NCBI GenBank assembly: GCA_028717245.1
Contig: JAQUOD010000003.1
Span: 85,636 to 149,635, forward strand
Direction of reading: 5' to 3'
DNA from: Candidatus Omnitrophota bacterium
Lineage (GTDB): Bacteria > Omnitrophota > Gorgyraeia > Gygaellales > Profunditerraquicolaceae
Length of the DNA: 64,000 nt
The position numbers and the translations under genes were made by a program. Shown here piece after piece: positions 28,395 to 40,209 of this stretch; the stretch's first letter is position 1; every line of letters begins with the position of its first letter. The notes under the pieces are model-generated. The model had not been told where the DNA came from, did not search any database, and worked only from the letters and a program-made list of their open reading frames with translations.

Positions 28395-28466
28395 GCCGAG
28401 GTAGCTCAGTGGTAGAGCGCGGCCCTGAAAAGGCCGGCGTGGGGGGTCCGATTCCCTCCCTCGGCA
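28395..28466 (+). tRNA. tRNA-Phe (anticodon GAA)
   Basis: Acceptor gccgagg/cctcggc, D-arm tagctcagtggtagagc, anticodon stem cggcc/ggccg with loop ctGAAaa, T-arm ggggg-tccgatt-ccctc; integrase immediately downstream. Confidence 0.75.
28453..28466 (+). repeat. attL core: 14-bp direct repeat TCCCTCCCTCGGCA (3' end of tRNA-Phe)
   Basis: identical 14-mer recurs at 39339-39352. Confidence 0.65.
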
Positions 28467-28499
28467 TTTAAATTTATAAGCATCTCGTAACTATATTAC

Positions 28500-28528
28500 T
28501 TGACAAGTATTTACAAAAATGCTACTAT
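28500..28528 (+). promoter_or_regulatory. Sigma70-type promoter for integrase (TTGACA-17-TACTAT)
   Basis: TTGACA 28500-28505, TACTAT 28523-28528. Confidence 0.5.
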
Positions 28529-28537
28529 TTCCAATAG

Positions 28538-28560
28538 GTGCCAGTGCCCAAATGGTGCCC
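28538..28560 (-). promoter_or_regulatory. GGCAC(A) triple direct-repeat operator-like site in int leader
   Basis: ggtgcc agtgccc aaatggtgccca = revcomp tGGGCACcatttGGGCACtGGCACc, between -10 and int start. Confidence 0.45.
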
Positions 28561-28587
28561 ATAGAAACATGAAAAAGTGAGGAAATT

Positions 28588-29613
28588 GTGGCAACTCTCC
28601 GTCGGAGAAACGAATCATACTTTGTTGACTACCGGATTAACGGTAGGCGCTTCCGTAAAAAAGTAGGTCCTTCCAAAAGAATAGCCGAGCTTGCCCTAAA
28701 AGATATAGAAGTTAAAATAGCTAAGGGTGAATTAGGTTTTTCACCAAAAGACAATTCTCTAGAGAAGCTATTTGAAGAATATCTTAAATACTCCAAGATA
28801 AACCACGCTCCGAATACTTACGAAAGATACAGGGGGATTCTTGATAACTTCAAGTCTTTCCTTGCTACTCGCCCCTATGTAAATAAGATTTCTCATTTAG
28901 ATCCTAAGTTATTTGAAGATTATAAGCATTTCCGTAAAGAGGGGAAAGCTGAAGATAAAACAGTTAATATAGAGCTTCAGATGCTCCGGGGTATGTTTAA
29001 TTTGGCACGGAAGTGGGGTTATTCTCAAAATAATCCCACAGAAGGCGTAACTTTCTTTAGAATTACCAAAACCCAGGAGCCAAGATTTCTCTCAAAAGAA
29101 GAATGCGAGAAGTTGCTAAATAATTGTGGAGAAGAGTTATATCCTATATTCTTTACTTTTCTTAACACTGGCATGAGAAGAGGTGAGTTGCTTAATCTTG
29201 AATGGAAAGATATAGATTTTAGCAGGAAGAGACTACAAATAAGAGCTAAAGAGGATTGGGAGCCTAAAACCTCAGAACGGTATATTCCTATGAACGATAG
29301 CTTGATAAAGGTACTAAAGAAGCATAAGGAAAAGAGTAGAGGCAGTTTAGTATTTACTGATAATAAAGGCGAGAAAATTCATAAAAACGAAATTAGGAAG
29401 GAACTTATTCGGATCACAAAGAAAAGCGCTTTTCCCGATGTAACAAAATTGCATAGTCTCCGGCATACTTTTGCAAGCCATTTGGTTATGAGCGGAGTAG
29501 ATTTGCCCACAGTAAAAAAACTAATGGGGCACTCAGACATAGAGACAACTATGATTTATTCTCACTTAGCGGATGAACACGTAGATAGGGCAGTAGAAAA
29601 ACTGGAGTTTTAG
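28588..29613 (+). CDS. int: Tyrosine-type site-specific recombinase (phage integrase family)
   Basis: C-terminal catalytic HSLRHTFASHLV...GHSDIETTMIYSHL (R..HxxR..Y) motifs; GTG start. Confidence 0.9.
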   Translation: MATLRRRNESYFVDYRINGRRFRKKVGPSKRIAELALKDIEVKIAKGELGFSPKDNSLEKLFEEYLKYSKINHAPNTYERYRGILDNFKSFLATRPYVNKISHLDPKLFEDYKHFRKEGKAEDKTVNIELQMLRGMFNLARKWGYSQNNPTEGVTFFRITKTQEPRFLSKEECEKLLNNCGEELYPIFFTFLNTGMRRGELLNLEWKDIDFSRKRLQIRAKEDWEPKTSERYIPMNDSLIKVLKKHKEKSRGSLVFTDNKGEKIHKNEIRKELIRITKKSAFPDVTKLHSLRHTFASHLVMSGVDLPTVKKLMGHSDIETTMIYSHLADEHVDRAVEKLEF

Positions 29614-29630
29614 TAGAGTGAGCTCTGAGA

Positions 29631-30425
29631 ATGAATAATAACTATATGCAAAAAAGTCAAAAAAAGACAAAACCAAATGTGAGGGATGAGCTCTCGAGGC
29701 GGGACACCTTACCCAGAGACTTTTTTGTTTTGTTTAATTTCTTTTCTGATCCAACCAGAGATATTTTATCGAAAATATTCTATAAGGCAATGAAGGTCGT
29801 TTATTTTAAGTTCAAAAGGAAAAAGGATATTTGGGAAGCAAAATTGATACGCAAAAATAAACCCTTGAGAGATTTTTATCCTCTCAGCAAAACAGATATT
29901 TCAAATTCCATTTATCTAGTAGATCATTATTTATCAAATCTTTATATTATTCCACCAGAGTGCGATCCTTTATCAAAATTTGGTCATTTTCCTTATGATG
30001 ATGCTATCAAGTTTTATGAGGAATATGTAGAAGGTAGTGTTAAAGATATTTATGGTAGAGAGATTGTTCTTGATGAAAACGGCCTAAATTCATTATTTGA
30101 TCATGATCCAGATCTTAATCCGAAGAACTATAGCGAGTCTCGAGGAAAACGACTTCCCTGGATAATACCAACACTTAGAAATTCTAAAGGAATCTATGAA
30201 TTTACCGAGCGATCCTGGACAACTTATTATTATATTAGCGCATTAAATGTGCCATATAAAGACAAAGCAACGGGAGAAGTATCAAAAGTTATGCATTACT
30301 TCTTTATTGTTATTAGAAAAGAGGCAGGGAAGCCACTAACTCTTATTACTGCATATCATTTTGATAAAGAATTAATGTTTTTGAAATTCTTAGAACCAGC
30401 ACACCCATTTATATATATGCCATAA
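29631..30425 (+). CDS. Hypothetical protein, co-transcribed with integrase
   Basis: 264-aa ORF 18 nt after int stop; no recognisable motif. Confidence 0.45.
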   Translation: MNNNYMQKSQKKTKPNVRDELSRRDTLPRDFFVLFNFFSDPTRDILSKIFYKAMKVVYFKFKRKKDIWEAKLIRKNKPLRDFYPLSKTDISNSIYLVDHYLSNLYIIPPECDPLSKFGHFPYDDAIKFYEEYVEGSVKDIYGREIVLDENGLNSLFDHDPDLNPKNYSESRGKRLPWIIPTLRNSKGIYEFTERSWTTYYYISALNVPYKDKATGEVSKVMHYFFIVIRKEAGKPLTLITAYHFDKELMFLKFLEPAHPFIYMP

Positions 30426-30616
30426 ATAAAGCTTGCAAATCTAAGATAAATGTTGTATGCTTATATCAGTTGAAGATTGCGGTGTAGGTTATCTGTTGTT
30501 TCTACTGGCGGGAATGACAGTCAAGCCTTGCCGCATAACACCAGCCTAAAAATACCAACCAAAAGTTGGTATTTTTTGTTTTATAGAGAGAAAAACAGTT
30601 CAGTTATTAAAAATTA

Positions 30617-30633
30617 GGCACATTTTGGGCACA
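30617..30633 (+). promoter_or_regulatory. GGCACA-TTTT-GGGCACA direct-repeat operator-like site
   Basis: aGGCACAttttGGGCACAg upstream of ORF 30708. Confidence 0.45.
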
Positions 30634-30707
30634 GAAAGACAGGTGATATTCATAACTTATTGAAAAGTAATAGATAAGAGTCGATTGATGTAGAACGAGG
30701 TGTTCTA

Positions 30708-31469
30708 ATGGATTGTTGGTTAAATTTAGGGATCACCGGAGGGTGTTGCTGGCCTACTGAGGACAAAAAGATTTTATTTGGCGGGCATGAATTTCTTCTA
30801 AAACCTGCGACTAGGGAAACAGAACAGTCTATTCATATTAACATTAGTAAGGAAAAAATGTCTCGTATTGATGCGATGACTCTTGTTAACAGGTTTTTAA
30901 GTATTATTTCATGGTGTGATGGTGGGAATGGAGGTATGGATATTATATATGATATCGGTGTGTCTAATGTCGCCCCTATTGCTATACCGATGAGAAGGAG
31001 AATGCTAGGTTCCTCAATAGATTTTCCATTTTACCGGGATATAGAAAAGAATCATAAAGCGTCTTTAGCGCTTGCCCTTTACAGAGAAGGCTTAGTAACG
31101 GATTCTGTTCCTTTGTCTTTCTTGAGCTTCTTTAAGATTATAAATATCTTTTATAATGACAAAACTACAAGAGTAAATAAACAGAAGCCTCAGAATGAAT
31201 TGATCGCAAGCCTAGGAAGTTTACTTCAGCATATAAAGTGTGACCTTGCCACGAAAAGAATAGATGAGCTCAAAAAATCAGTAAATGACATCCCGAAGTA
31301 TTTATATGAACGCCGGTGTGCAATCGCTCATGCATTTGTAGATCCAACAATTGATCCGGATAATGTGGCTGAATCAAGGGATTTATCTCAAGATACATGG
31401 ATTATAAGGGCGATAGCAGATTATCTAATAGAGAAAAAACTCAATGTTTCAAAATCAATATTGGGGTAG
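30708..31469 (+). CDS. Hypothetical protein with C-terminal HEPN-like Rx4-6H motif (candidate RNase/Abi-like)
   Basis: ERRCAIAHAF (R-x4-AH) near C-terminus in predicted helical domain. Confidence 0.5.
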   Translation: MDCWLNLGITGGCCWPTEDKKILFGGHEFLLKPATRETEQSIHINISKEKMSRIDAMTLVNRFLSIISWCDGGNGGMDIIYDIGVSNVAPIAIPMRRRMLGSSIDFPFYRDIEKNHKASLALALYREGLVTDSVPLSFLSFFKIINIFYNDKTTRVNKQKPQNELIASLGSLLQHIKCDLATKRIDELKKSVNDIPKYLYERRCAIAHAFVDPTIDPDNVAESRDLSQDTWIIRAIADYLIEKKLNVSKSILG

Positions 31470-31512
31470 TAAGCACATTAAAAGATAGAGGAGCATTTAA
31501 CTTGAACCAATT

Positions 31513-31530
31513 GGGCACAAGTTAGGCACA
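31513..31530 (+). promoter_or_regulatory. GGGCACA-N5-GGCACA operator-like site
   Basis: ttGGGCACAagttaGGCACAaat upstream of ORF 31637. Confidence 0.4.
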
Positions 31531-31636
31531 AATTTAATCATGGTCAATCCTATCTGCTTGGATTATAACAAGTAGTAGTTATTAGTATTAGATCAGTATA
31601 TTCTAAACTAATCTTGATTGTTACAAGGAAAACAAG

Positions 31637-33199
31637 ATGCCGAATGCTATAGAAGGTAAATATTGCATTTTTAATTACTCTGAATTCCCACAGCTTAAAG
31701 ATAGGGCTTTTCAGTTATTCCAGTATTTTGAGAATAAATACCCAAAGATTCTACAGCTCGTTGATCTTCCAATGCGTGAGAGGGTTAATATCGTTATGAA
31801 AACATTACCCTTAGGGCCACCAGCTGGGAAGACTGGCCATAGTGATATCTATTTGGATCCGAACCAGCTTGATCCTAAGGATTTAGGAGTCTTAGTCCAT
31901 GAGGGAACTCATGTGGCACAAGATTTTCAAGATGATAACTTTGAAAATATTGATAATAAATTATGGCTTATAGAAGGAATGGCTAATCATGTGCGATTGT
32001 TGTTGGGATGGGATGGTCCGAATCAACCCAAATTCGAACCAAGCAAAATAAAAATAAATACTAGCTTGAAAGAGCAAAGAGACTATGATGTGTGGGCTGA
32101 ATTTTTTAAATGGTTAGCAACAAAATATTCTAAAGGAAACTTGCTTGTTGATTTTACAAATGCGTTGAAAAATAGCGAAACAGATGAAGCTTTCCTCAAA
32201 AGAGAATTTGGTAAGTCTAGTGGACAACTCTGGGGAGAATTTGAAGGTCGAGTACTTTTTGAACAATTCAAGGTTAAAAGAGAATTATGGATAGAATGCC
32301 TCTCCGGTAAAGACCGTAATTCTATATTCAATCAGATTTTTGACATGGTTTGGAATGCTGCCGTTTTTAGAGTAATTAACGAGGCGCGCAAGATAACTGC
32401 GGAAAATGAAGAAGGTCAGAAGGAAATCAATGGGATGTTACATCACTTTATAGATGAGTGTTTCTTCGATAGTCAATTTCTTGCTATTCGCCGGTTAACA
32501 GATCCAGCTTATGAGCTACGTGATGCCGAGAGAGGGATTTTTTCTCTATTTGCATTATTAAATGATATGAGGAAAAATATAGCGTTATTCACTAGGGAGA
32601 ATTTTTTTGCAGCAGAAGGTCTCGAATATGATTACGAGGCTATTGAGAAACGAGAGCAAGAGTTTATCGCTGAACAAGTAAAAAATGGACAACGGGTTAT
32701 TTGGGGGCCGCGAGACTTAGATAGTTGGCCGATAAAATTACGTCATGAAGCAATTGATGCGTTATCTGGAGTAAGCGCAGAGCAACGCAAGCCTTCTGAT
32801 GTTATCCAAGAAAAAGTCTTAGATTGTTTAATTAAGATACTTAAAGACGTATCGACAGACATTAACCTATACGTGAATAAATACATAGCGCATCTCGCTA
32901 CGCCTCAGAGTCGGGAGCATTATAAGGCTGATGAAGTATCGATTACCTTAGGTCATTTGTGGAATGCATATAAAGTAATATGTCAGGTTGCTAATTTTGT
33001 CGATTCATATATGCTTACGGGAGCGAGTCACAGTTTTTTACCAGTTCCACAATTTAATAATTTTGAATTTATTGAGAAGTCCTTGGTTTCTTATTCAAAT
33101 ATCGAGGTTTTAAGCAAGGCATGGGATGATTTTTCTAAGGAAACAAGTTCTTGGGGTTCTTGGGGTCTGAAAGAGCTCCGTGAACAAAGTGGGCTTTAG
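31637..33199 (+). CDS. Multidomain protein: N-terminal HExxHxxQ zinc-metallopeptidase-like domain (BSP/basic-secretory-protein-like) + ~320-aa C-terminal domain of unknown function
   Basis: HEGTHVAQD motif at ~aa 88-96; rest unmatched. Confidence 0.5.
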   Translation: MPNAIEGKYCIFNYSEFPQLKDRAFQLFQYFENKYPKILQLVDLPMRERVNIVMKTLPLGPPAGKTGHSDIYLDPNQLDPKDLGVLVHEGTHVAQDFQDDNFENIDNKLWLIEGMANHVRLLLGWDGPNQPKFEPSKIKINTSLKEQRDYDVWAEFFKWLATKYSKGNLLVDFTNALKNSETDEAFLKREFGKSSGQLWGEFEGRVLFEQFKVKRELWIECLSGKDRNSIFNQIFDMVWNAAVFRVINEARKITAENEEGQKEINGMLHHFIDECFFDSQFLAIRRLTDPAYELRDAERGIFSLFALLNDMRKNIALFTRENFFAAEGLEYDYEAIEKREQEFIAEQVKNGQRVIWGPRDLDSWPIKLRHEAIDALSGVSAEQRKPSDVIQEKVLDCLIKILKDVSTDINLYVNKYIAHLATPQSREHYKADEVSITLGHLWNAYKVICQVANFVDSYMLTGASHSFLPVPQFNNFEFIEKSLVSYSNIEVLSKAWDDFSKETSSWGSWGLKELREQSGL

Positions 33200-33203
33200 A
33201 ATA

Positions 33204-33220
33204 GGCACATTTTGGGCACA
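33204..33220 (+). promoter_or_regulatory. GGCACA-TTTT-GGGCACA operator-like site
   Basis: taGGCACAttttGGGCACAaat upstream of ORF 33364. Confidence 0.45.
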
Positions 33221-33363
33221 AATAAACGGTAATCTTTATAACTTCTTGTATTTCATGAAACAAAGAAAAGTAGTTTAGAACAGATAGTTCTAACTCGCTC
33301 AAAAAGTGATATAATGATTCTATAATCACAATAGGTTGCAAATAAGATATGAGAAAAAAGTGA

Positions 33364-33678
33364 ATGGATGATAAAATGCAGCCAATAACTTGGGAAGATT
33401 TTGTATTACAAAGATACGAATGGACGAAAGTTTCTAGGTATGCAGTAACATTGGATGGTATCTTAGTGCGAGACGATAGTAAACCCGACAGTCCCTTTTA
33501 CATGTGCCTATGGGAAGGCTGGTGGGAGCCGCAGGGCTTGCCAGCAGTCGGCGTGAGCATAAGAGATGTACTTGAGGCAAAACCGGTCAGCACGGAAGAA
33601 GCGAGAGAGATAATACGCCGGGAAGCAAAACCTAGAGTAATGAGACCAGCGGAAAGAAAAAACTGGAGATTTGATTGA
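33364..33678 (+). CDS. Hypothetical protein (104 aa)
   Basis: ORF with Trp-rich segment WEGWWEPQG; no motif. Confidence 0.4.
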   Translation: MDDKMQPITWEDFVLQRYEWTKVSRYAVTLDGILVRDDSKPDSPFYMCLWEGWWEPQGLPAVGVSIRDVLEAKPVSTEEAREIIRREAKPRVMRPAERKNWRFD

Positions 33679-33772
33679 TACAAATTATTATTGATTGTTT
33701 TCTTTGTTGAGGTAATATTGAGTTAGACAATCTGGTCCAATAGCTTTACCTTAAAGAGGCTTTAAGGCCTCT

Positions 33773-33851
33773 AACAGTGACGTAAGGTAAGCTGCATTAC
33801 TCCCCGAAAGGGGAGGGGGAAATGCAGTCTTATCGGATTTACGTCACTGTT
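33773..33851 (+). other. 79-nt three-tier hairpin: 13-bp perfect stem (aacagtgacgtaa/ttacgtcactgtt), 8-bp inner stem, 6-bp stem with GAAA tetraloop; T-tract 15 nt downstream
   Basis: perfect inverted repeats; ctccccgaaaggggag GNRA hairpin at centre. Confidence 0.55.
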
Positions 33852-33911
33852 GCCGGTAGGAATATGCGCCCCCTTTTTTGTTAAAGTGGGTATATATAAA
33901 GGAGGGATAAG

Positions 33912-34445
33912 ATGAATATTTTAGAGCAAATTATGATAGGATTCATAGGAAGGCCAATCTTAACTCTTATTAAATGGTTAAGATGGTATTTCTTTCTTGG
34001 TGGGATAATGTTCAATACGGTTGAGATATATGATCCAGCTACTAAAAGCATAGTTTCAAGCCAGTTTACTATAATCCCTTTTCTTTTGGGTTTAGTTTTA
34101 TTAGCTATTGGATTGACAGTTAAGAGATATGATGAAAATGTTGCTACGCTTCACGGTATCTCTATGTTGGAAGGATTGCAGGGAAAGATAAGAAAAGCCT
34201 ATCAAAATGGTAAGGAAGCAGATGCACAGGAGAGGGTGGACAAGGATTACCAAGAAACGCTCCAATTGTTAGCGGAGGGGCGGCAAGTACTCAACAAAGC
34301 GAGATCGGAGCGGTTGAGAGACGACAGCAGTCCGTTCAATCCGAGATTAAGCGAGAACGAAGCCTCTGGGGTTATTAAGAAGTCAGTAGAAGCTATTGAG
34401 CAAGAAGAGAAGCAAAATAAATCTAAACAAGATAACAAAAAGTAA
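33912..34445 (+). CDS. Hypothetical membrane protein (2 TM + charged coiled-coil C-terminus)
   Basis: two hydrophobic helices, then E/K/Q-rich tail. Confidence 0.4.
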   Translation: MNILEQIMIGFIGRPILTLIKWLRWYFFLGGIMFNTVEIYDPATKSIVSSQFTIIPFLLGLVLLAIGLTVKRYDENVATLHGISMLEGLQGKIRKAYQNGKEADAQERVDKDYQETLQLLAEGRQVLNKARSERLRDDSSPFNPRLSENEASGVIKKSVEAIEQEEKQNKSKQDNKK

Positions 34446-34623
34446 TATTATATTTTCTTAGTCTTAATCGGTCCCCCCCCCTAAGAGCTTCGCAATCTAT
34501 CCAACCAAATAGTGCTTTTCTTTCGTTCCTTTGCGTCTCTACCTGTTTTGTGCTTAAATTTTGCCATTAAGATGGTTTTTTTTCTTTATACTCTATTTAA
34601 AGTAGTAATTTGGTATATGCGAT

Positions 34624-35640
34624 TTGTGGTATAATTATATAAAAAGCGAGGAAGACGTGGCTTTAAAGACTAAGAAGAAACTATTTGAAAAATTAAACAA
34701 TGTAGAAGAAGCGCTCTGTTTATCAAAAATATCTCAACCCGAGTTTTTTGAGGCATATTTAGAACTTGAAACAAATCTCCACAGTATTTTTAAAAAAATA
34801 GGGGAAGTTTACGAAAAAAATAAAATTAGTCATCAAAATAATCCTGAATACATTAAGCTAAAACAACATAAAAAGAATTTAATAAGTAATTTCTACAAAA
34901 AATGGGGAATATCTCCTTCATCTTTTAAAGTAGTTAATAGTAAAATAGAGATAGACGAATCTATTAAAAACATAGACGGGATTGCGGTGCATATTGATAC
35001 TCCTCTTCCTGAAATAATCGGGAAGATCGTGCCTGCTAAGGAAAAATATTTAACTTTGTTGATAGACACCTTCGAAGAAAAAGAAATAATTTTAGCCGAA
35101 GTTTCCCGGATCTATGATTGGATAAATGAGATGCGAACAGAAACGGGAGTAAAGCTTCCTAAAGACAAATGTCATGTAAAGGTATTGGTTAGGAGATACA
35201 AAGTATTTAATCTAAGAAACCAAAGACCCCCAATGAAATTCAAGGAAATTGTTTTTCATATGATAACGAAAGGATTTTATAAAGATGAAACATTAGAAAA
35301 AGCAGAAAACTTAGCAAAAAAAGATTATGCAGCGGCTTATAGGAAGATTCACGGTATTCCATATAAAGAGCATAATAAATCGCAACTTAAGAAATCAAAT
35401 TTCAAAGGTTGCGCGTCTTGTGAAGCAAGACAAAAATGTAAAGAGCCTTGTTCCCAAGCAGAGTATTATTTATCTTTAGATGAAAAGAAGCAATCAGAAC
35501 TGCTTTTTAATAGGGGCGTAACTGATATTATTCATCCCGAAGATCTTAAAGAGGCGAAACAGAAAAAAAGAGCGATGATGTCAGAAGATGAAGAAGAGTG
35601 GAGACAAGAAGAGATTGAAAGGGGTATATATAAAAAGTAG
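34624..35640 (+). CDS. Hypothetical Lys-rich protein with C-terminal Cys cluster (CASCEARQKCKEPC)
   Basis: 338-aa ORF; start could be in-frame GTG at 34657. Confidence 0.4.
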   Translation: MWYNYIKSEEDVALKTKKKLFEKLNNVEEALCLSKISQPEFFEAYLELETNLHSIFKKIGEVYEKNKISHQNNPEYIKLKQHKKNLISNFYKKWGISPSSFKVVNSKIEIDESIKNIDGIAVHIDTPLPEIIGKIVPAKEKYLTLLIDTFEEKEIILAEVSRIYDWINEMRTETGVKLPKDKCHVKVLVRRYKVFNLRNQRPPMKFKEIVFHMITKGFYKDETLEKAENLAKKDYAAAYRKIHGIPYKEHNKSQLKKSNFKGCASCEARQKCKEPCSQAEYYLSLDEKKQSELLFNRGVTDIIHPEDLKEAKQKKRAMMSEDEEEWRQEEIERGIYKK

Positions 35641-35655
35641 TGTTTAGGGAAAATT

Positions 35656-35693
35656 AAATCAGGGTAACCCGATTTTTCACTTTTACAAGGGTG
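35656..35693 (+). repeat. 38-bp direct repeat copy 1 (aaatcagggtaacccgatttttcacttttacaagggtg)
   Basis: identical to 35738-35775. Confidence 0.8.
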
Positions 35694-35723
35694 AGGGCTT
35701 AAAAACTCTCACCCTTTTTGTTT
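35688..35723 (+). terminator. Rho-independent terminator (agggtgag/ctcaccct, T-tract) overlapping repeat copy 1
   Basis: 8-bp perfect stem + tttttgttt. Confidence 0.65.
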
Positions 35724-35737
35724 ATCCAGGCTTTTAA

Positions 35738-35775
35738 AAATCAGGGTAACCCGATTTTTCACTTTTACAAGGGTG
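35738..35775 (+). repeat. 38-bp direct repeat copy 2, 20 nt upstream of SpoVG-like gene
   Basis: identical to copy 1; contains near-palindrome atcagggtaacccgat. Confidence 0.8.
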
Positions 35776-35795
35776 GAAGGACAAATTTAAAGAAG

Positions 35796-36119
35796 ATGAG
35801 CGAAATAGTGGTCTCCGAAGTTCAAATTATTCCAGTTAAACCCAGAGAGGGCCTCGTTGCTTTTGCTTCTTGTGTTATCAACGGCCATTTTTATCTTGGT
35901 GGATTAGCGATTTATACCTGTCTTTCTTCCTCAGAAGGTTTCCGAGTGACCTATCCTACCAAAGTTTTAAATAACGGCACTAAATTAGATCTAGTTTATC
36001 CAATAACACGCGAAGTTGGGTTAACAGTTCAGAAGAAAATTGTCGAAAAATACGTAAAACTCATAGAAGATTTAACGAAAGGGAATGGTAAAAATGAACA
36101 AGAGCCGAGATTTACTTAA
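35796..36119 (+). CDS. SpoVG-like nucleic-acid-binding protein
   Basis: VSEVQIIPVKPREGLVAFASCVINGHFYLGGLAIY...GFRVTYPTK...VYPITREVGLTVQKKIVEKY matches SpoVG fold pattern; ATG 35796 preferred over ORF-track 35718. Confidence 0.5.
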   Translation: MSEIVVSEVQIIPVKPREGLVAFASCVINGHFYLGGLAIYTCLSSSEGFRVTYPTKVLNNGTKLDLVYPITREVGLTVQKKIVEKYVKLIEDLTKGNGKNEQEPRFT

Positions 36120-36399
36120 ACGTTTCGCCTCTTCAAAATCAAAATATTTTGATTTGCCTGATGGCGAAGAAACCCAAGTAAAATTTCTTTATGCAGAAGA
36201 AGTCCCTAATCATTTTGATGGCGGAGAAACAGTTTGTATTCGCTATCACTTTGACGTTGATGGTAAAGAAATGCTTTGGGATAGAACTTCGAGAGAGTTA
36301 GCTAAACAAATAGCTTCGATTTCTGAAGGAGAAACAATTTTAATAAAAAGAACCGGTGAAAAAAGTAAAACTAAATATTTTATCAGGAAAGTTGAATAA
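36085..36399 (+). CDS. Hypothetical protein (104 aa)
   Basis: ORF only. Confidence 0.35.
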   Translation: MVKMNKSRDLLKRFASSKSKYFDLPDGEETQVKFLYAEEVPNHFDGGETVCIRYHFDVDGKEMLWDRTSRELAKQIASISEGETILIKRTGEKSKTKYFIRKVE

Positions 36400-36616
36400 T
36401 GACATCAACAAGGCCCCTGTCAATTTTTCATCGCTCTGACCTACTTACTCTGTCAACGATGACCTATACAAGCATGCAGGGGCTTTGTTTTAGATTTAGA
36501 TATTGCTTTAGAGATATGCTTGGTAGGAATAAAGAGTAAAGCTTAGGCCAATAGAACGTAATTAAGTTATTTATTTCTATATATAGATAATAGTCATTTA
36601 AGAGGAGGGGAAGGAT

Positions 36617-36868
36617 ATGGGATTAACCGGAGTTAACAAATTATGTGCTCAGTGTATAAATAAATGTAAGCAGTGGAGGGAAATCAAGGTAATCAGCTGT
36701 CCACTTTTTATAAGCACGCAAAGAAAAAAACCTGATCTGAATGGCAGAAATTTTCAAGGCATACCCAACAAGCACAGGGGAATGGCGGAAATGCCATTCT
36801 TTGAGGCGTTTTCTGAAGAAAGGAATAAAGATATGGCTTCTGAGTTTATGGATACCCTGCAAGCGTGA
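36617..36868 (+). CDS. Hypothetical small protein with CxxC..C zinc-ribbon-like N-terminus
   Basis: CAQCINKCKQW; GGAGGGG RBS. Confidence 0.35.
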   Translation: MGLTGVNKLCAQCINKCKQWREIKVISCPLFISTQRKKPDLNGRNFQGIPNKHRGMAEMPFFEAFSEERNKDMASEFMDTLQA

Positions 36869-36912
36869 GATATTAGTACAAACTATACTAAACTATACCA
36901 CATTGAACGGAA

Positions 36913-37299
36913 ATGGATAAAAAGACGAAACTGTCAAACAGGCAATTATTAACAGTCAGTCATATCATTACTTCTCCTACCCTTGAAGAAGCCAGAAGGA
37001 AAGCTAAGGTAAGTAAGGGAACTTTATACGCTTGGTTAAAAGAAGAAGCCTTTAAGGTTGAGTTGAAGCGTCAGAGAGATGAAGTTATTAAAGAAGCGCT
37101 CTCTCGGTTAAAGAGTGCTATATCCCAGGCTGTAGAAAAATTGGTTAAGTTACTTGATAATGAAAAGCCAGATTTGAGGCGCCTAGTTTGTAGGGATATA
37201 CTGAATTATGCTTTAAAGAGCATTGAACTAGAAGATATCGAGACAAGGATAGCCAATCTGGAAGAAAAAACAAAATTAGCACGGAAATTTCACAGATGA
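36913..37299 (+). CDS. HTH DNA-binding protein (terminase-small-subunit-like or regulator)
   Basis: TLEEARRKAKVSKGTLYAWLK helix-turn-helix. Confidence 0.45.
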   Translation: MDKKTKLSNRQLLTVSHIITSPTLEEARRKAKVSKGTLYAWLKEEAFKVELKRQRDEVIKEALSRLKSAISQAVEKLVKLLDNEKPDLRRLVCRDILNYALKSIELEDIETRIANLEEKTKLARKFHR

Positions 37300-37553
37300 G
37301 AATTGAGAAGAGATTAGAACGGCTCGAGAAAGATATAGGGGATAAATTTCAGCCAGACCCCGGAGAAATTATTATCAATGGCAAAAGGTTAGACCAAATG
37401 ACAACGGAGGAGTTGATAGCAGATGTCAATAAGAAGGTTAAGGCCATGGAGGATACAGAGTATGGAAGGAAAATAATGAAACTATCCATAGACGATAAAA
37501 TAAAACGTCTAAACCAATGGGCTATTACCGGCGTTTGTCCACCATTAGATTAG
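37296..37553 (+). CDS. Hypothetical coiled-coil protein (85 aa)
   Basis: ORF overlapping upstream stop (ATGA). Confidence 0.35.
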   Translation: MRIEKRLERLEKDIGDKFQPDPGEIIINGKRLDQMTTEELIADVNKKVKAMEDTEYGRKIMKLSIDDKIKRLNQWAITGVCPPLD

Positions 37554-37581
37554 CCAAATTTATGGGGAGAATATGAAAAAA

Positions 37582-37609
37582 GGCATTTTTTGGGCATTTT
37601 TTGGGCACA
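37582..37609 (+). promoter_or_regulatory. Triple GGCA/GGGCA/GGGCACA direct-repeat operator-like site upstream of xis
   Basis: aGGCAttttttGGGCAttttttGGGCACAaaat. Confidence 0.45.
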
Positions 37610-37688
37610 AAATTAAGGTTATCTTTTGTTATGTATTGCAAACAAAGAAGTTAGTAAAAGTTAGTGCAGAATAAGGAAATCTAACCTT

Positions 37689-37895
37689 GTGGAAAAGTTA
37701 CTTACGATAAGCCAATTAAGTGAGTTATTACAAGTTAGTCCAAAGACAATTTATCAATGGACGCACATAGGTTTTGTTCCTCACTATAAATTCCCTAAAG
37801 GTGTTCGTTTTAGGATAATAGAAATAGAAAATTGGTTAAAAAGCAGGAAAAAAAGAGGGAGAGCTTCGTATGTCTTGGTTGACAAAGGACCATAA
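37689..37895 (+). CDS. xis: AlpA/excisionase-family HTH protein (Xis)
   Basis: LLTISQLSELLQVSPKTIYQW...GVRFRIIEIENWL pattern typical of phage excisionase/AlpA. Confidence 0.7.
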   Translation: MEKLLTISQLSELLQVSPKTIYQWTHIGFVPHYKFPKGVRFRIIEIENWLKSRKKRGRASYVLVDKGP

Positions 37896-38775
37896 TTATG
37901 TTATTTTAAGGCAGCATAAGGAGATAACTTTGAAAGGTACAATTCAAGAAAAAACAAAGATTGCATACCTTGGTCCGGAAGAAACCTTTAGCCATCAGGT
38001 TGTAGATGAGCTCTTTGGAGATTCGGCAATATACCTACCTCAAGATAATTTTCCCTCAGTTATAAAACTTATATGCGACGGCAAGGCAGACAGAGGTGTT
38101 ATTCCATTCTTTAACCCCTATGAAGAACATATACGCGAATGTCAAGAAGAGCTATTCAAAACCGATTTAATAGCAACAAATGTTCATAAGATTGATATTG
38201 ATTTATACTTAGCAACTAACAGATTACGTTTGGATGAGGTAAAATCAATACGATCTAATGAGCATGTGTTTAAACAATGTGATGTTTGGTTAAGTCAACA
38301 TTTACCAGAAATACGTTTTGATGGAAGAGGTAGCACCGCGGGAGCAGCCGAGGATATAAAAAAAATACCTTATGCCGCGGCAATCTGCTCATTTAAAGCT
38401 GCCATAAAAAACGATCTGGATATTTTAGCAAAAAGCATACAAAATACAAAGAATTTCACATTATTTTTTGTTATACAAAAAGCAGATACCATAGAAGAAT
38501 GGGAAGACTATTCATTTCTTTGTTTCAAGATAAAAGATGCTAAAGAACAAAAAGCAATATTGGATATTCTTCAGAAACATCGTTTCAGAAGTTCGCAAAA
38601 GTGGGATTTTCCTCATCCGACGGGGGAATACATACTTTTCTTCTTAGAGTTTTTTGGAGCTTATCTTGATGCAAATGTTGTTTCTTTTATCGCAGAGGTT
38701 AAAAAATACTTTCCAGACTGTAAACTGATAGGGACTTTTAAGGAGAGTATTACGAGAAGAATGGTTGAAATTTAG
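37870..38775 (+). CDS. Divergent prephenate-dehydratase (PDT)-like domain protein
   Basis: IAYLGPEETFSH, SNEHVFKQC, STAGAAE, N-FTLF (cf. PDT IAYLGPEGTFS, SHPQALAQC, STAAAA, N-TRF); Arg of TRF replaced by Leu. Confidence 0.45.
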   Translation: MSWLTKDHNYVILRQHKEITLKGTIQEKTKIAYLGPEETFSHQVVDELFGDSAIYLPQDNFPSVIKLICDGKADRGVIPFFNPYEEHIRECQEELFKTDLIATNVHKIDIDLYLATNRLRLDEVKSIRSNEHVFKQCDVWLSQHLPEIRFDGRGSTAGAAEDIKKIPYAAAICSFKAAIKNDLDILAKSIQNTKNFTLFFVIQKADTIEEWEDYSFLCFKIKDAKEQKAILDILQKHRFRSSQKWDFPHPTGEYILFFLEFFGAYLDANVVSFIAEVKKYFPDCKLIGTFKESITRRMVEI

Positions 38776-38776
38776 T

Positions 38777-38806
38777 TTGACAAAGTGAGAAAAGATACTA
38801 TATAAT
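38777..38806 (+). promoter_or_regulatory. Sigma70-type promoter (TTGACA ... TATATAAT)
   Basis: TTGACA 38777-38782; tactatataat 38797-38806. Confidence 0.45.
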
Positions 38807-38831
38807 AGAGTACATCCTATCCTATCACAAT

Positions 38832-39095
38832 ATGACTAAAAACGAAGAAATGAAACCATTTCTGAACTTGACAACTGTCCAGATTAACGGTTGGGCTATG
38901 GCTTTTTGCCCTGAATTTGAGGTATCTGCTTGTGGTCCTGATCGCGATGCAGTGGTCGAGGATTTATTTGATATGGTCAAAAGGAACGCAAGCATATTCT
39001 TGCAAGAAGAGTCAACTTCTCCGGCTCTAAGAAAATGGTCGAAAGAAGTTGTTGATCATCAGGATCGTATTGCAGATTTATTCAAAACAGCTTAA
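38832..39095 (+). CDS. HicB-like (UPF0150) antitoxin-fold protein, solitary
   Basis: INGWAMAFCPEFEVSACGPDRDAVVEDLFDMVK resembles HicB N-domain; no HicA partner seen. Confidence 0.35.
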   Translation: MTKNEEMKPFLNLTTVQINGWAMAFCPEFEVSACGPDRDAVVEDLFDMVKRNASIFLQEESTSPALRKWSKEVVDHQDRIADLFKTA

Positions 39096-39187
39096 TAGTA
39101 GTAGTCATTTGTCACGGTTTTTATAAAAACAGAAGTGGTTAATTACTTCTGTTTTTTTATTTGTAATTTTATAAAATAAGATACTTC

Positions 39188-39205
39188 TGTGCCCAAAATG
39201 TGCCC
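39188..39205 (-). promoter_or_regulatory. GGGCACA-TTTT-GGGCACA operator-like site (reverse orientation) near island right end
   Basis: tgtgcccaaaatgtgccca. Confidence 0.4.
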
Positions 39206-39338
39206 ATCCAAGTGAAAAACATCGGGAAACAAAGGGTAACATCAGGCAACATCCAGACTCGCTAATCCATTGACAATAAAAGCATTGGATATTTAATACA
39301 TTAAAACACAGAGGGTTAGGGAAATAAGCACGATGGAC

Positions 39339-39352
39339 TCCCTCCCTCGGCA
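39339..39352 (+). repeat. attR core: 14-bp direct repeat TCCCTCCCTCGGCA
   Basis: exact copy of tRNA-Phe 3' end (28453-28466). Confidence 0.65.
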
Positions 39353-39358
39353 CCATAT

Positions 39359-39400
39359 AAAAACGAGAGGTTTCAGTAAGCCTCTCGTTTTGCTTTATTT
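39359..39400. terminator. Bidirectional intrinsic terminator (aaacgagagg/cctctcgttt 10-bp stem)
   Basis: perfect 10-bp stem, A-tract upstream and T-tract downstream. Confidence 0.6.
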
Positions 39401-39496
39401 AGGCGTAATTGGTTAAGTTATGAAGCGGTTTACGTCCCTTTTATTCGTTTAGGGACGCTTGGAAAGATTGCATAGTTTTATATAACATTGATTCTT

Positions 39497-39516
39497 AATG
39501 GCACGCTAATGGCACA
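39497..39516 (+). promoter_or_regulatory. AATGGCAC direct-repeat pair ~150 bp outside attR (same half-site and 11-bp phasing as island motif)
   Basis: aatggcacgctaatggcaca. Confidence 0.3.
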
Positions 39517-39735: not shown

Positions 39736-40209
39736 ATGCTAAGAAGCGAATGTAGAGGGCAAGGGTGGTGGCACGGTAAATTCAGAGGCTGCGGCTATAG
39801 GCTTACCCTGGGCCGGGAGGCTATCCTTGATGTCTTATCGAAGGCCGAAGGCCACTTAAGCGCCGAAGATATATACTTGAAGATACATCCGAAGCATCCT
39901 AACGTAGGTTTGACTACCGTTTACCGGACATTAGATGTATTATCAGGCCTTGGTATGGTTTATAAACTTGATTTCGGAGACGGTCGTTCACGCTATGAGT
40001 TTGCCGAAGGGCCTAAGGGGGCACACCACCATCACCACTTAGTCTGTACCCAGTGCAATAAGGTGATTGACTACACCGATTTTATAGACGATGAGGTTGA
40101 ATTGCTCAATCAGACCGAAAAAGGCTTAGGGCAAAAGTATAAGTTTAAGATCACAAATCATCTGATACAGTTTTACGGTTTGTGCGAGGATTGTAGCGGT
40201 AAAAAATAG
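39736..40209 (+). CDS. fur: Fur-family metal-responsive transcriptional regulator
   Basis: winged-helix LTTVYRTLDVLSGLGMV, His-rich HHHHH..C..C and C-terminal CxxC; N-terminal start uncertain. Confidence 0.8.
   Translation: MLRSECRGQGWWHGKFRGCGYRLTLGREAILDVLSKAEGHLSAEDIYLKIHPKHPNVGLTTVYRTLDVLSGLGMVYKLDFGDGRSRYEFAEGPKGAHHHHHLVCTQCNKVIDYTDFIDDEVELLNQTEKGLGQKYKFKITNHLIQFYGLCEDCSGKK

Follow-up and report, generated by a model that had tools for sequence, protein, structure and literature searches.

Short direct repeats, 11 base pairs (bp) apart, recur across a genomic island of a Candidatus Omnitrophota bacterium, and they raise the question of which protein recognizes them and to what end. The window, that is the whole stretch analysed, comprises 64 kilobases (kb) of contig JAQUOD010000003.1 and carries a tRNA-Phe island of ~10.9 kb (28467-39352) with genes for an integrase (int) and an excisionase (xis). 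An earlier note on this DNA had described an island-specific, operator-like GGCACA repeat in every intergenic promoter region, attributed either to arm-type integrase sites or to a protein coordinating the whole element. From the comparisons below, we consider that the repeats (GGCAC / GGGCAC half-sites, 11 bp apart) are probably arm-type sites of a heterobivalent integrase, Int, that have been reused at promoters.

Copies of the repeat and their density

Every copy listed in the earlier note was present in the sequence, and all but the last lie inside the island:

28538-28560, minus strand: P' arm, three half-sites, with GTGCC at 28538, 28544 and 28555
30617-30633, plus strand: GGCACAttttGGGCACA
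31513-31530, plus strand: GGGCACAagttaGGCACA
33204-33220, plus strand: GGCACAttttGGGCACA, a 17-mer identical to the 30617 copy
37582-37609, plus strand: GGCA / GGGCA / GGGCACA with 11-bp phasing
39188-39206, minus strand: P arm, two GGGCAC half-sites, the same 17-mer
39500-39516, plus strand: a GGCACgctaatGGCACA pair in host DNA, 148 bp outside the right attachment site (attR)

The repeat itself is therefore real, but the strict GGCACA half-site is not what is conserved: the conserved form is GGCAC / GGGCA(C). Nor is the motif found in every intergenic promoter region. It is present in 4 of ~10, plus both attachment (att) arms, and no copy was seen in the gaps before 33912, 34624, 35718, 36617, 36913 and 38832.

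The exact 17-mer GGCACATTTTGGGCACA occurs three times (30617, 33204 and, reversed, 39188). GGCAC-N6-GGCAC was found 6 times in 64 kb against 0.02 expected, a count reached in 0/100 shuffles, and the 17-mer with at most three mismatches 6 times against 0.16 expected. When seven related islands were pooled, GGCA-N7-GGCAC occurred 20 times in 68 kb of island DNA versus once in 127 kb of host flank. Both the shuffles and the island-versus-host density rule out chance occurrence of the motif. Island specificity holds within the window and fails beyond it, the motif being common to the whole integrase family and to attachment sites (attP) of Gordonia phages.

The sole host-flank match in the 127 kb is the 39500 copy, for which a chance origin is unlikely for that very reason; it may be a relic of an older island. 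The pair lies upstream of a Fur-family gene (39736-40209). At a related island, L102, three GGAATATCCAGAC repeats were observed directly outside attR (L102 12688-12735).

The end copies, the integrase and its relatives

The two end copies lie beside the following elements, which also include the excisionase discussed further below:

28395-28466, plus strand: tRNA-Phe gene (ARAGORN, Rfam tRNA); its 3' end, 28450-28466, is the core of the left attachment site (attL)
28500-28528, plus strand: Pint, the int promoter, with TTGACA, 17 nucleotides (nt), TACTAT and a TG extension (10/12 positions in the promoter scan)
28588-29613, plus strand: tyrosine integrase gene adjoining attL, 341 amino acids (aa), Pfam 1.9e-34, with an N-terminal beta3-alpha domain at residues 1-46
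37689-37895, plus strand: Xis, a recombination directionality factor (RDF) of 68 aa, HTH_17 / MerR-like (Pfam HTH_17 1.5e-11; PHROG 'excisionase and transcriptional regulator')
39336-39352, plus strand: attR core, the displaced tRNA-Phe 3' end, in which the 17-mer core is repeated with one mismatch

We compared four complete islands (window, L022, L102 and L036), searching for k-mers common to the 135 bp that follow attL and the 230 bp that precede attR. The longest k-mer common to both arms was the repeat in the window, L102 and L036; in L022 the repeat was only among the longest arm-shared k-mers (7 nt), and a longer 9-mer inverted match was present. The arm copies were in direct orientation in 4/4 islands, distinct from the core and on both sides of the crossover, at no more than ~150 bp. 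In the window the P' set is 72-94 bp away from the core, with the -10 of Pint on one side and the Shine-Dalgarno sequence of int on the other, and a comparable position, about 72-95 bp after the tRNA or tmRNA end, was observed in the window, L022, L029, L036 and L102. The P set, in the same orientation, lies 130-148 bp left of the attR core in the window and, across the complete islands, 117-137 bp from the core; P arms are homologous in L022, L102, L106 and L108. Where another gene separates int from the tRNA end (L029, L102 and L111), the distance of the P' set to that end is kept despite the insertion, indicating that the set belongs to the attachment site and not to the int gene.

The 3.7-kb island L036 carries int and unrelated cargo and has no xis. 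Its P' arm holds two half-sites and its P arm three TTTGTGCCATA units, perfect and in tandem, and it is the only example in which the repeats persist without an RDF or another island DNA-binding protein. The Int N-terminus was modelled as three strands plus a helix, with a predicted local distance difference test (pLDDT) of ~80-90, and the whole Int model aligns with structures of full-length lambda Int over ~340 columns; the Pfam Arm-DNA-bind_2 match to Int was sub-threshold only. The model suggests that the N-domain is of the lambda-like arm-binding type. On this comparative evidence, the end copies are very likely the arm-type (P/P') sites of the integrase. The comparison supports the suggestion of arm-type sites in the case of these two copies, and the protein part most likely to bind them is the N-domain of Int.

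The P arm contains further conserved sequence:

39218-39277, plus strand: accessory blocks, AACATC three times (39218, 39238, 39248), ATCCAGAC (39251-39258) and TTGACAAT (39270-39277)

These blocks lie between the arm sites and the core, are conserved in L022 (17325-17385), L102 (12475-12540) and L106 (11580-11625), and are candidate sites for Xis or a host bending factor. TTGACAAT resembles a promoter reading across attR; in the excised circle it would read towards int.

The tRNA and int are co-oriented, with the sigma-70 promoter between core and int, and the P' half-sites fall at ~+3 to +26 relative to Pint, in the transcribed leader. In KplE1, IntS and TorI repress the intS promoter, which overlaps attL (Panis et al. 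2010, PMC2951348), and co-oriented tRNA-int pairs are predicted to be autoregulated in many genomes (PMC2951348). With the P' set placed in the leader just after the Pint -10, bound Int should, by analogy, repress its own gene. Arm sites together with an int promoter embedded in attL are an ordinary, known kind of feature.

The island is one of a large family whose tyrosine integrases target tRNA and tmRNA genes. Scanning one genome per species yielded 73 loci encoding integrase relatives, in Omnitrophota, Ratteibacteria, Zixibacteria, Ignavibacteriales and others, and 3,588 homologues at E <= 1e-20 were retrieved from a protein database. Almost all loci have int 110-125 bp downstream of the 3' end of a tRNA or tmRNA. 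We inspected the 125 bp upstream of int for 30 loci. Most showed the same order: tRNA end, TTGACA / -10 promoter, ~10 nt, repeat pair, ~20 nt, then ribosome-binding site and int start. In nearly all of the 30, the 60 bp preceding int contained the pair, direct repeats 11 bp apart in reverse orientation; this held in Omnitrophota, Ratteibacteria, Zixibacteria and Ignavibacteriales alike, and for tRNA-Ser, -Leu, -Phe, -Ala and tmRNA as targets. The half-site varied: the group of Omnitrophota and Ratteibacteria has GTGCCC, that of Zixibacteria and Ignavibacteriales, which targets tmRNA, has GTGCCA, a tRNA-Leu/Ser group has GTGAC(C/T), and L047 has TGGGACT. Among the subgroups sampled, the half-site followed the integrase subgroup and not the target tRNA/tmRNA or the cargo. 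We found no description of this integrase family. Two candidates for comparison were discarded, namely an apparent attR in L044, which is a chance 11-mer inside a gene, and element A of L038, a decayed remnant with a different arm layout.

These observations bear on the proposal that another island protein recognizes the repeats and that their likeness to arm sites is secondary. The proteins in question are an adjacent small open reading frame (ORF) product and those of two genes:

35718-36119: SpoVG-like gene
36913-37299: gene for a 128-aa helix-turn-helix (HTH) protein, similar to small terminase subunits (TerS-like) by PHROG matches

Both protein types can bind DNA. The SpoVG-like gene is present in the window, L022, L102 and L108 and the TerS-like gene in the window, L022 and L102, while ORFs of the same size occupy the TerS-like position in L106, L108 and L110 (candidates by size and place). 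However, both are absent from L036, which keeps the repeats, and neither gave a tblastn match in the examined portions of repeat-bearing Zixibacteria and Ignavibacteriales islands. The half-site varies with integrase subgroup and not with these genes, and the PHROG matches point to packaging, not regulation. Four further loci were uninformative on this point: in L101, L103, L104 and L105 a TerS-like gene is present and GGCAC repeats are absent, but the integrase of L103 and L104 is another one, and in the examined parts of L101 and L105 none was called. No relatives of the TerS-like protein were found in viral contigs. We regard recognition by any of these proteins as improbable, and the 128-aa HTH protein, put forward in the earlier note as a possible regulator, fits that role poorly, being small-terminase-like and missing from the Int-only island that keeps the repeats.

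The repeat was also found outside the family. An exact search with the 17-mer matched 19 viral contigs, of which 8 carry a tyrosine integrase gene in the examined stretch, and in 7 of these 8 the 17-mer lies within ~270 bp of, or inside, the int 3' end. Dismissal of the viral matches as chance single hits was rejected, several being attP regions of Gordonia phages. Two GGGCAC-N5-GGGCAC clusters, 167-229 bp apart and in one orientation, were observed in L004 (probably Gordonia phage Gsput1), L007, L018 (Gordonia phage Dardanus) and L019 (Gordonia phage Schmidt), the last two identified by BLAST. One cluster adjoins or lies inside the 3' end of the tyrosine integrase gene in the three Gordonia loci at least, and in Dardanus, the only locus read at sequence level, the clusters bracket a tRNA-3'-like core. 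This layout is that of an attP using the same arm sequence in cultured actinophages and provides an independent check on the arm-site reading. The GGGCACATTTTGGGCACA clusters are located at L018 1295-1540, L019 7064-7309 and L004 2181-2391. The int-proximal copy of Dardanus lies inside the int 3' end, where it encodes the C-terminal CAQNVP, and would be at once coding sequence and binding site.

Forward copies at putative xis and cargo promoters

The internal copies are all forward, opposite to the arm copies, and are found ahead of xis and of three cargo genes:

30617-30707, plus strand: cargo module 1, with GGCACAttttGGGCACA, a -10-like CATAAC at 30651-30656 and a hairpin/palindrome TAGAACgaggtGTTCTA at 30691-30707 abutting the ATG of the MauJ-like gene
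30708-31469: MauJ-like gene, defence-flavoured cargo
31513-31636, plus strand: cargo module 2, with GGGCACAagttaGGCACA, ahead of the next gene
31637-33199: BSP-peptidase / HEPN-AbiU2 fusion gene, defence-flavoured cargo
33204-33297, plus strand: cargo module 3, with GGCACAttttGGGCACA, TATAAC at 33237-33242 and a palindrome TTTAGAACagataGTTCTAA at 33275-33294, ahead of the next gene
33364-33678: gene for a 104-aa protein
37582-37688, plus strand: Pxis module, with the triple repeat 80-107 bp before the xis start

Two or three half-sites in forward orientation precede the start of xis by ~85-130 bp in 8 islands (window, L022, L096, L098, L102, L106, L108 and L110). Cargo genes are preceded by forward copies in 4 islands. 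The window has three such copies; L108 has two, upstream of genes for a DUF4379 protein and a BglII-type endonuclease, and L110 and L111 have one each, upstream of a further MauJ-like gene in L110 and of a DUF4379 gene in L111. Alignments showed that the cargo copies sit in a conserved module of ~100 bp, composed of the repeats, a spacer of 16-19 nt, a -10-like (T/C)ATAAC(T), ~35 nt, and then a palindrome (TTTAGAAC-N5-6-GTTCTAA) and/or a second element (AGAACGAGrTGyTCTAA). The latter presents a Shine-Dalgarno-like GAGG in its hairpin loop, and the start codon may follow directly. Module 3 begins 5 nt past the preceding stop codon and is homologous to L108 4707-4801 and L110 4283-4359. The palindromes are conserved (window 30691-30707 and 33275-33294; L108 3115-3165 and 4775-4830) and may act as operators for some other factor or as hairpins in translation. 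A search of the modules against Rfam gave no known RNA family, only the tRNA scoring, and the module leaders were not unusually structured except for a hairpin of 6-7 bp.

In these modules the proximal GGCACA would take the place of the -35 hexamer. In none of the four motif-bearing gaps did the promoter scan find a sigma-70 consensus promoter that lies on the strand of the gene and has its -10 before the start codon. In contrast, promoters without the forward motif (Pint, the 38777 promoter and the fur promoter) score 10-12/12. The -10-like (T/C)ATAAC follows GGCACA by 16-19 nt in most modules and by 13-14 nt in L102. The site of the P arm and two of the cargo sites are an identical 17-mer, so that one protein should bind all of them. 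The idea of one protein coordinating the whole element survives in modified form, the internal copies matching the arm sites and standing at promoter positions; its claims of a copy at every promoter and of a motif unique to the island do not.

Two other origins of the internal copies were rejected. As relics of tandem accretion they have the wrong orientation, opposite to the arms, no core fragment nearby, and homology to the Pxis module. As parts of integron-like cassettes, with TTAGAAC-N6-GTTCTAA as core-type site, they would require a palindrome that is unlike the tRNA-derived core; besides the att cores there is only one core-like sequence (32524-32540, 3 mismatches), which falls within a gene and far from any module.

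The lack of sigma-70 boxes in front of genes at which the forward copies point could also speak for promoters of an alternative sigma factor, in particular sigma-54 (-24 GG / -12 GC). GGCAC-N6-GGCA satisfies GG-N10-GC, a match that any 11-bp repeat containing GGC yields automatically, and the 39500 copy (TGGCACGctaaTGGCA) is one mismatch from the sigma-54 consensus TGGCACG-N4-TTGCA. Yet GGGCA stands where a -12 element would read TTGC(A/T), the P and P' copies are directed into a terminator or away from genes, and neither GG nor GC is preserved in GTCAC and GTCCCA, variants from the family. Moreover, the island encodes no AAA+ enhancer-binding protein and has no conserved upstream activator site. 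We rejected the sigma-54 promoter on its -12 sequence, on the way in which the end copies are oriented and on the variants within the family; promoters of this kind are very improbable here.

The triple repeat upstream of xis brings in the main competitor to Int, the 68-aa Xis itself. As an HTH_17 winged-helix RDF, Xis would occupy the repeats as a head-to-tail polymer with a monomer at every helical turn; besides bending the att arms for excision, it would repress int, autoregulate xis and co-regulate cargo. It is present and conserved in the sublineage bearing the promoter copies, and 11-bp phased tandem half-sites, A/T spacers and the triple repeat upstream of xis fit RDF/BldC-like filaments. 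The repeats also follow the RDF pattern in being head-to-tail, one turn apart, at att and at the xis promoter. RDF sites are normally on one att arm only (lambda, L5, KplE1), whereas the island repeats are on both, at lambda-like distances, and L036 keeps perfect repeats on both arms without xis. Distant relatives that do have xis show the int-proximal repeat and none upstream of xis. If Xis were the binder, the arms would have no other shared sequence for Int, despite its domain of the arm-binding type. The Gordonia attP, where one of two clusters adjoins or lies inside the int 3' end, also argues against Xis. For comparison, head-to-tail repeats with a spacing of one turn are recognized by winged-helix RDFs of the Xis/BldC/RdfS type, and RdfS occupies attP as well as the promoter of its own gene (PMC11963761); in KplE1, PintS is overlapped by sites for TorI (PMC2951348). 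We judge recognition by Xis to be unlikely, though clearly less so than recognition by the other proteins considered.

Several points weigh against Int as the protein acting at the promoter copies. RDF-type binding at attP and its own promoter matches the xis-proximal triple repeat well (PMC11963761), and no precedent for Int arm sites at an xis promoter was found in the open literature, so that the arrangement may be new or the reading wrong. The distance from the candidate -10 to the proximal half-site is variable (12-19 nt), making the promoter assignment soft, and the 39500 copy outside attR is not accounted for. Finally, distant relatives with xis have no repeat upstream of it, from which the promoter copies would be a derived feature of an Omnitrophota/Ratteibacteria sublineage.

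In the circuit that we propose, Int would bind the repeats through its N-terminal beta3-alpha domain. The P arm (39188-39206) and P' arm (28538-28560) would flank the core and assemble the intasome for integration and excision, and Int on the P' leader sites would limit its own synthesis, in an autoregulation of the KplE1 IntS type. The same site, inverted, would have been copied to the -35 position of the ~100-bp promoter/leader module that is predicted to drive xis and the three cargo genes (MauJ-like, peptidase/HEPN-AbiU2 and 104-aa protein) of the window island. Occupation of the -35 region by Int would then make the xis and cargo modules depend on Int level. Site geometry, conservation throughout the family, half-site differences among integrase subgroups, the modelled fold of the N-domain and the lack of a normal -35 box are observed; we infer Int as the binder, an effect of its binding on transcription, and the direction of that control. 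Activation is slightly favoured because the modules are without a -35 box while the unregulated promoters of the island are near consensus; its geometry would resemble that of lambda CII or PhoB sites, repression by occlusion being the alternative.

We tentatively suggest, as a possibility rather less probable than its contrary, that the arm-binding domain of Int was recruited as a transcription factor and that a portable ~100-bp module puts xis and anti-phage cargo under integrase level. Its scope would be one Omnitrophota/Ratteibacteria island family with HEPN-AbiU2, restriction enzymes, DUF4379 and MauJ-like cargo. A limited literature search found no description of arm sites reused as promoter elements for xis and successive cargo. 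If true, cargo expression would be coupled to the recombination state of the element and the island recombinase would be its master regulator, the amount of Int setting expression of excisionase and defence cargo. This would add a simple, testable circuit to genomic-island biology and give a first handle on gene regulation in mobile elements of uncultured Omnitrophota. It would also make a plug-in route for cargo visible, because each new gene arrives behind the same portable module. If untrue, a clean map of attL, attR, arm sites and int promoter for a large integrase family would still be available.

Other features of the island and comparison with known systems

Besides Pint, two promoters served above for contrast, and one of them belongs to a gene on the host side:

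38777-38806: sigma-70 promoter, 12/12 positions, the strongest in the island, with no motif copy
39736-40209: Fur-family gene on the host side of attR, with a promoter near consensus

Exact-sequence look-ups of Int and Fur gave no recorded match. The window island also encodes a prephenate-dehydratase-like protein. Between the 104-aa and 177-aa genes we observed a hairpin (33772-33852) with perfect outer arms of 13 nt, -44.8 kcal/mol and z = -7.4, which had no Rfam match; it may be a structured RNA, a terminator or a hairpin like those of origins. A direct repeat of 38 bp without mismatches, AAATCAGGGTAACCCGATTTTTCACTTTTACAAGGGTG, at 35656-35693 and 35738-35775 flanks a terminator-like hairpin, directly upstream of the SpoVG-like gene and overlapping its start.

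The TerS-like HTH protein and the SpoVG-like protein are common to several islands of the family (window 36913-37299 and 35718-36119; L022 13363-15242; L111 10032-11816), L022 having in addition a primase-like zinc-finger protein and L111 a Prim-Pol/AAA_25 protein. Such TerS-like, SpoVG-like and primase-type genes suggest a replicating, possibly phage-satellite-like element and not a passive island. The cargo of the family is mostly defence-like (HEPN-AbiU2, SIR2, BglII and EcoRI restriction systems, DUF4379, Fic, HicAB and MauJ-like) and differs between islands at equivalent positions (window 29631-33678; L106 4246-8293; L108 1292-5445; L110 7938-9119). A metagenome contig (L109 1-8341) has the same host genes upstream of the integration site, an SNF symporter and a CDP-alcohol phosphatidyltransferase, and its island is another one: the integrase is 88% identical, and an HNH protein and a transposase come after it. 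From this layout the tRNA-Phe site appears to be a recurrent integration spot in the host lineage.

The closest likeness at the ends is to the arm sites of lambda Int (P1, P2 and P'1-P'3). In both cases the integrase is heterobivalent and has a beta3-alpha domain at its N-terminus, both arms carry short direct repeats within ~150 bp whose sequence is unrelated to the core, and the int-proximal P' arm holds a tandem array. The lambda arm consensus is cAGTCACTAT, which the island half-site GGCACA (GTCACA in relatives) resembles. Unlike lambda, the island has extra copies kilobases from att, in opposite orientation, before xis and cargo. The attP of Gordonia phages likewise has, next to a tyrosine integrase gene, two clusters of the identical GGGCACATTTTGGGCACA repeat at 167-229 bp from each other, but the integrases are only 24-29% identical over the catalytic domain and one cluster overlaps the 3' coding end of int.

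Similarly to KplE1 IntS, tRNA and int are co-oriented, the int promoter is inside attL and the putative Int arm sites overlap the promoter region. In the window, however, the sites are downstream of the -10, in the leader, and recur at other promoters of the element. Dual-function RDFs (P2 Cox, 186 Apl, P4 Vis, TorI, RdfS, and BldC-like filaments) likewise show phased direct repeats at att and at promoters, and one small protein there couples excision with transcription. The island sites differ in being on both arms and in persisting without xis, with Int as their presumed binder. Class II activator sites (lambda CII TTGC-N6-TTGC; PhoB boxes) would have in common with the modules two or three half-sites, one turn apart, which replace or straddle a missing -35 ahead of a weak candidate -10; they are bound by an unrelated protein family, activation in the island is hypothetical, and its -10 distance is 12-19 nt. 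If the proposed role of Int is true, it would be a bacterial parallel to AP2-domain transcription factors, with a common fold.

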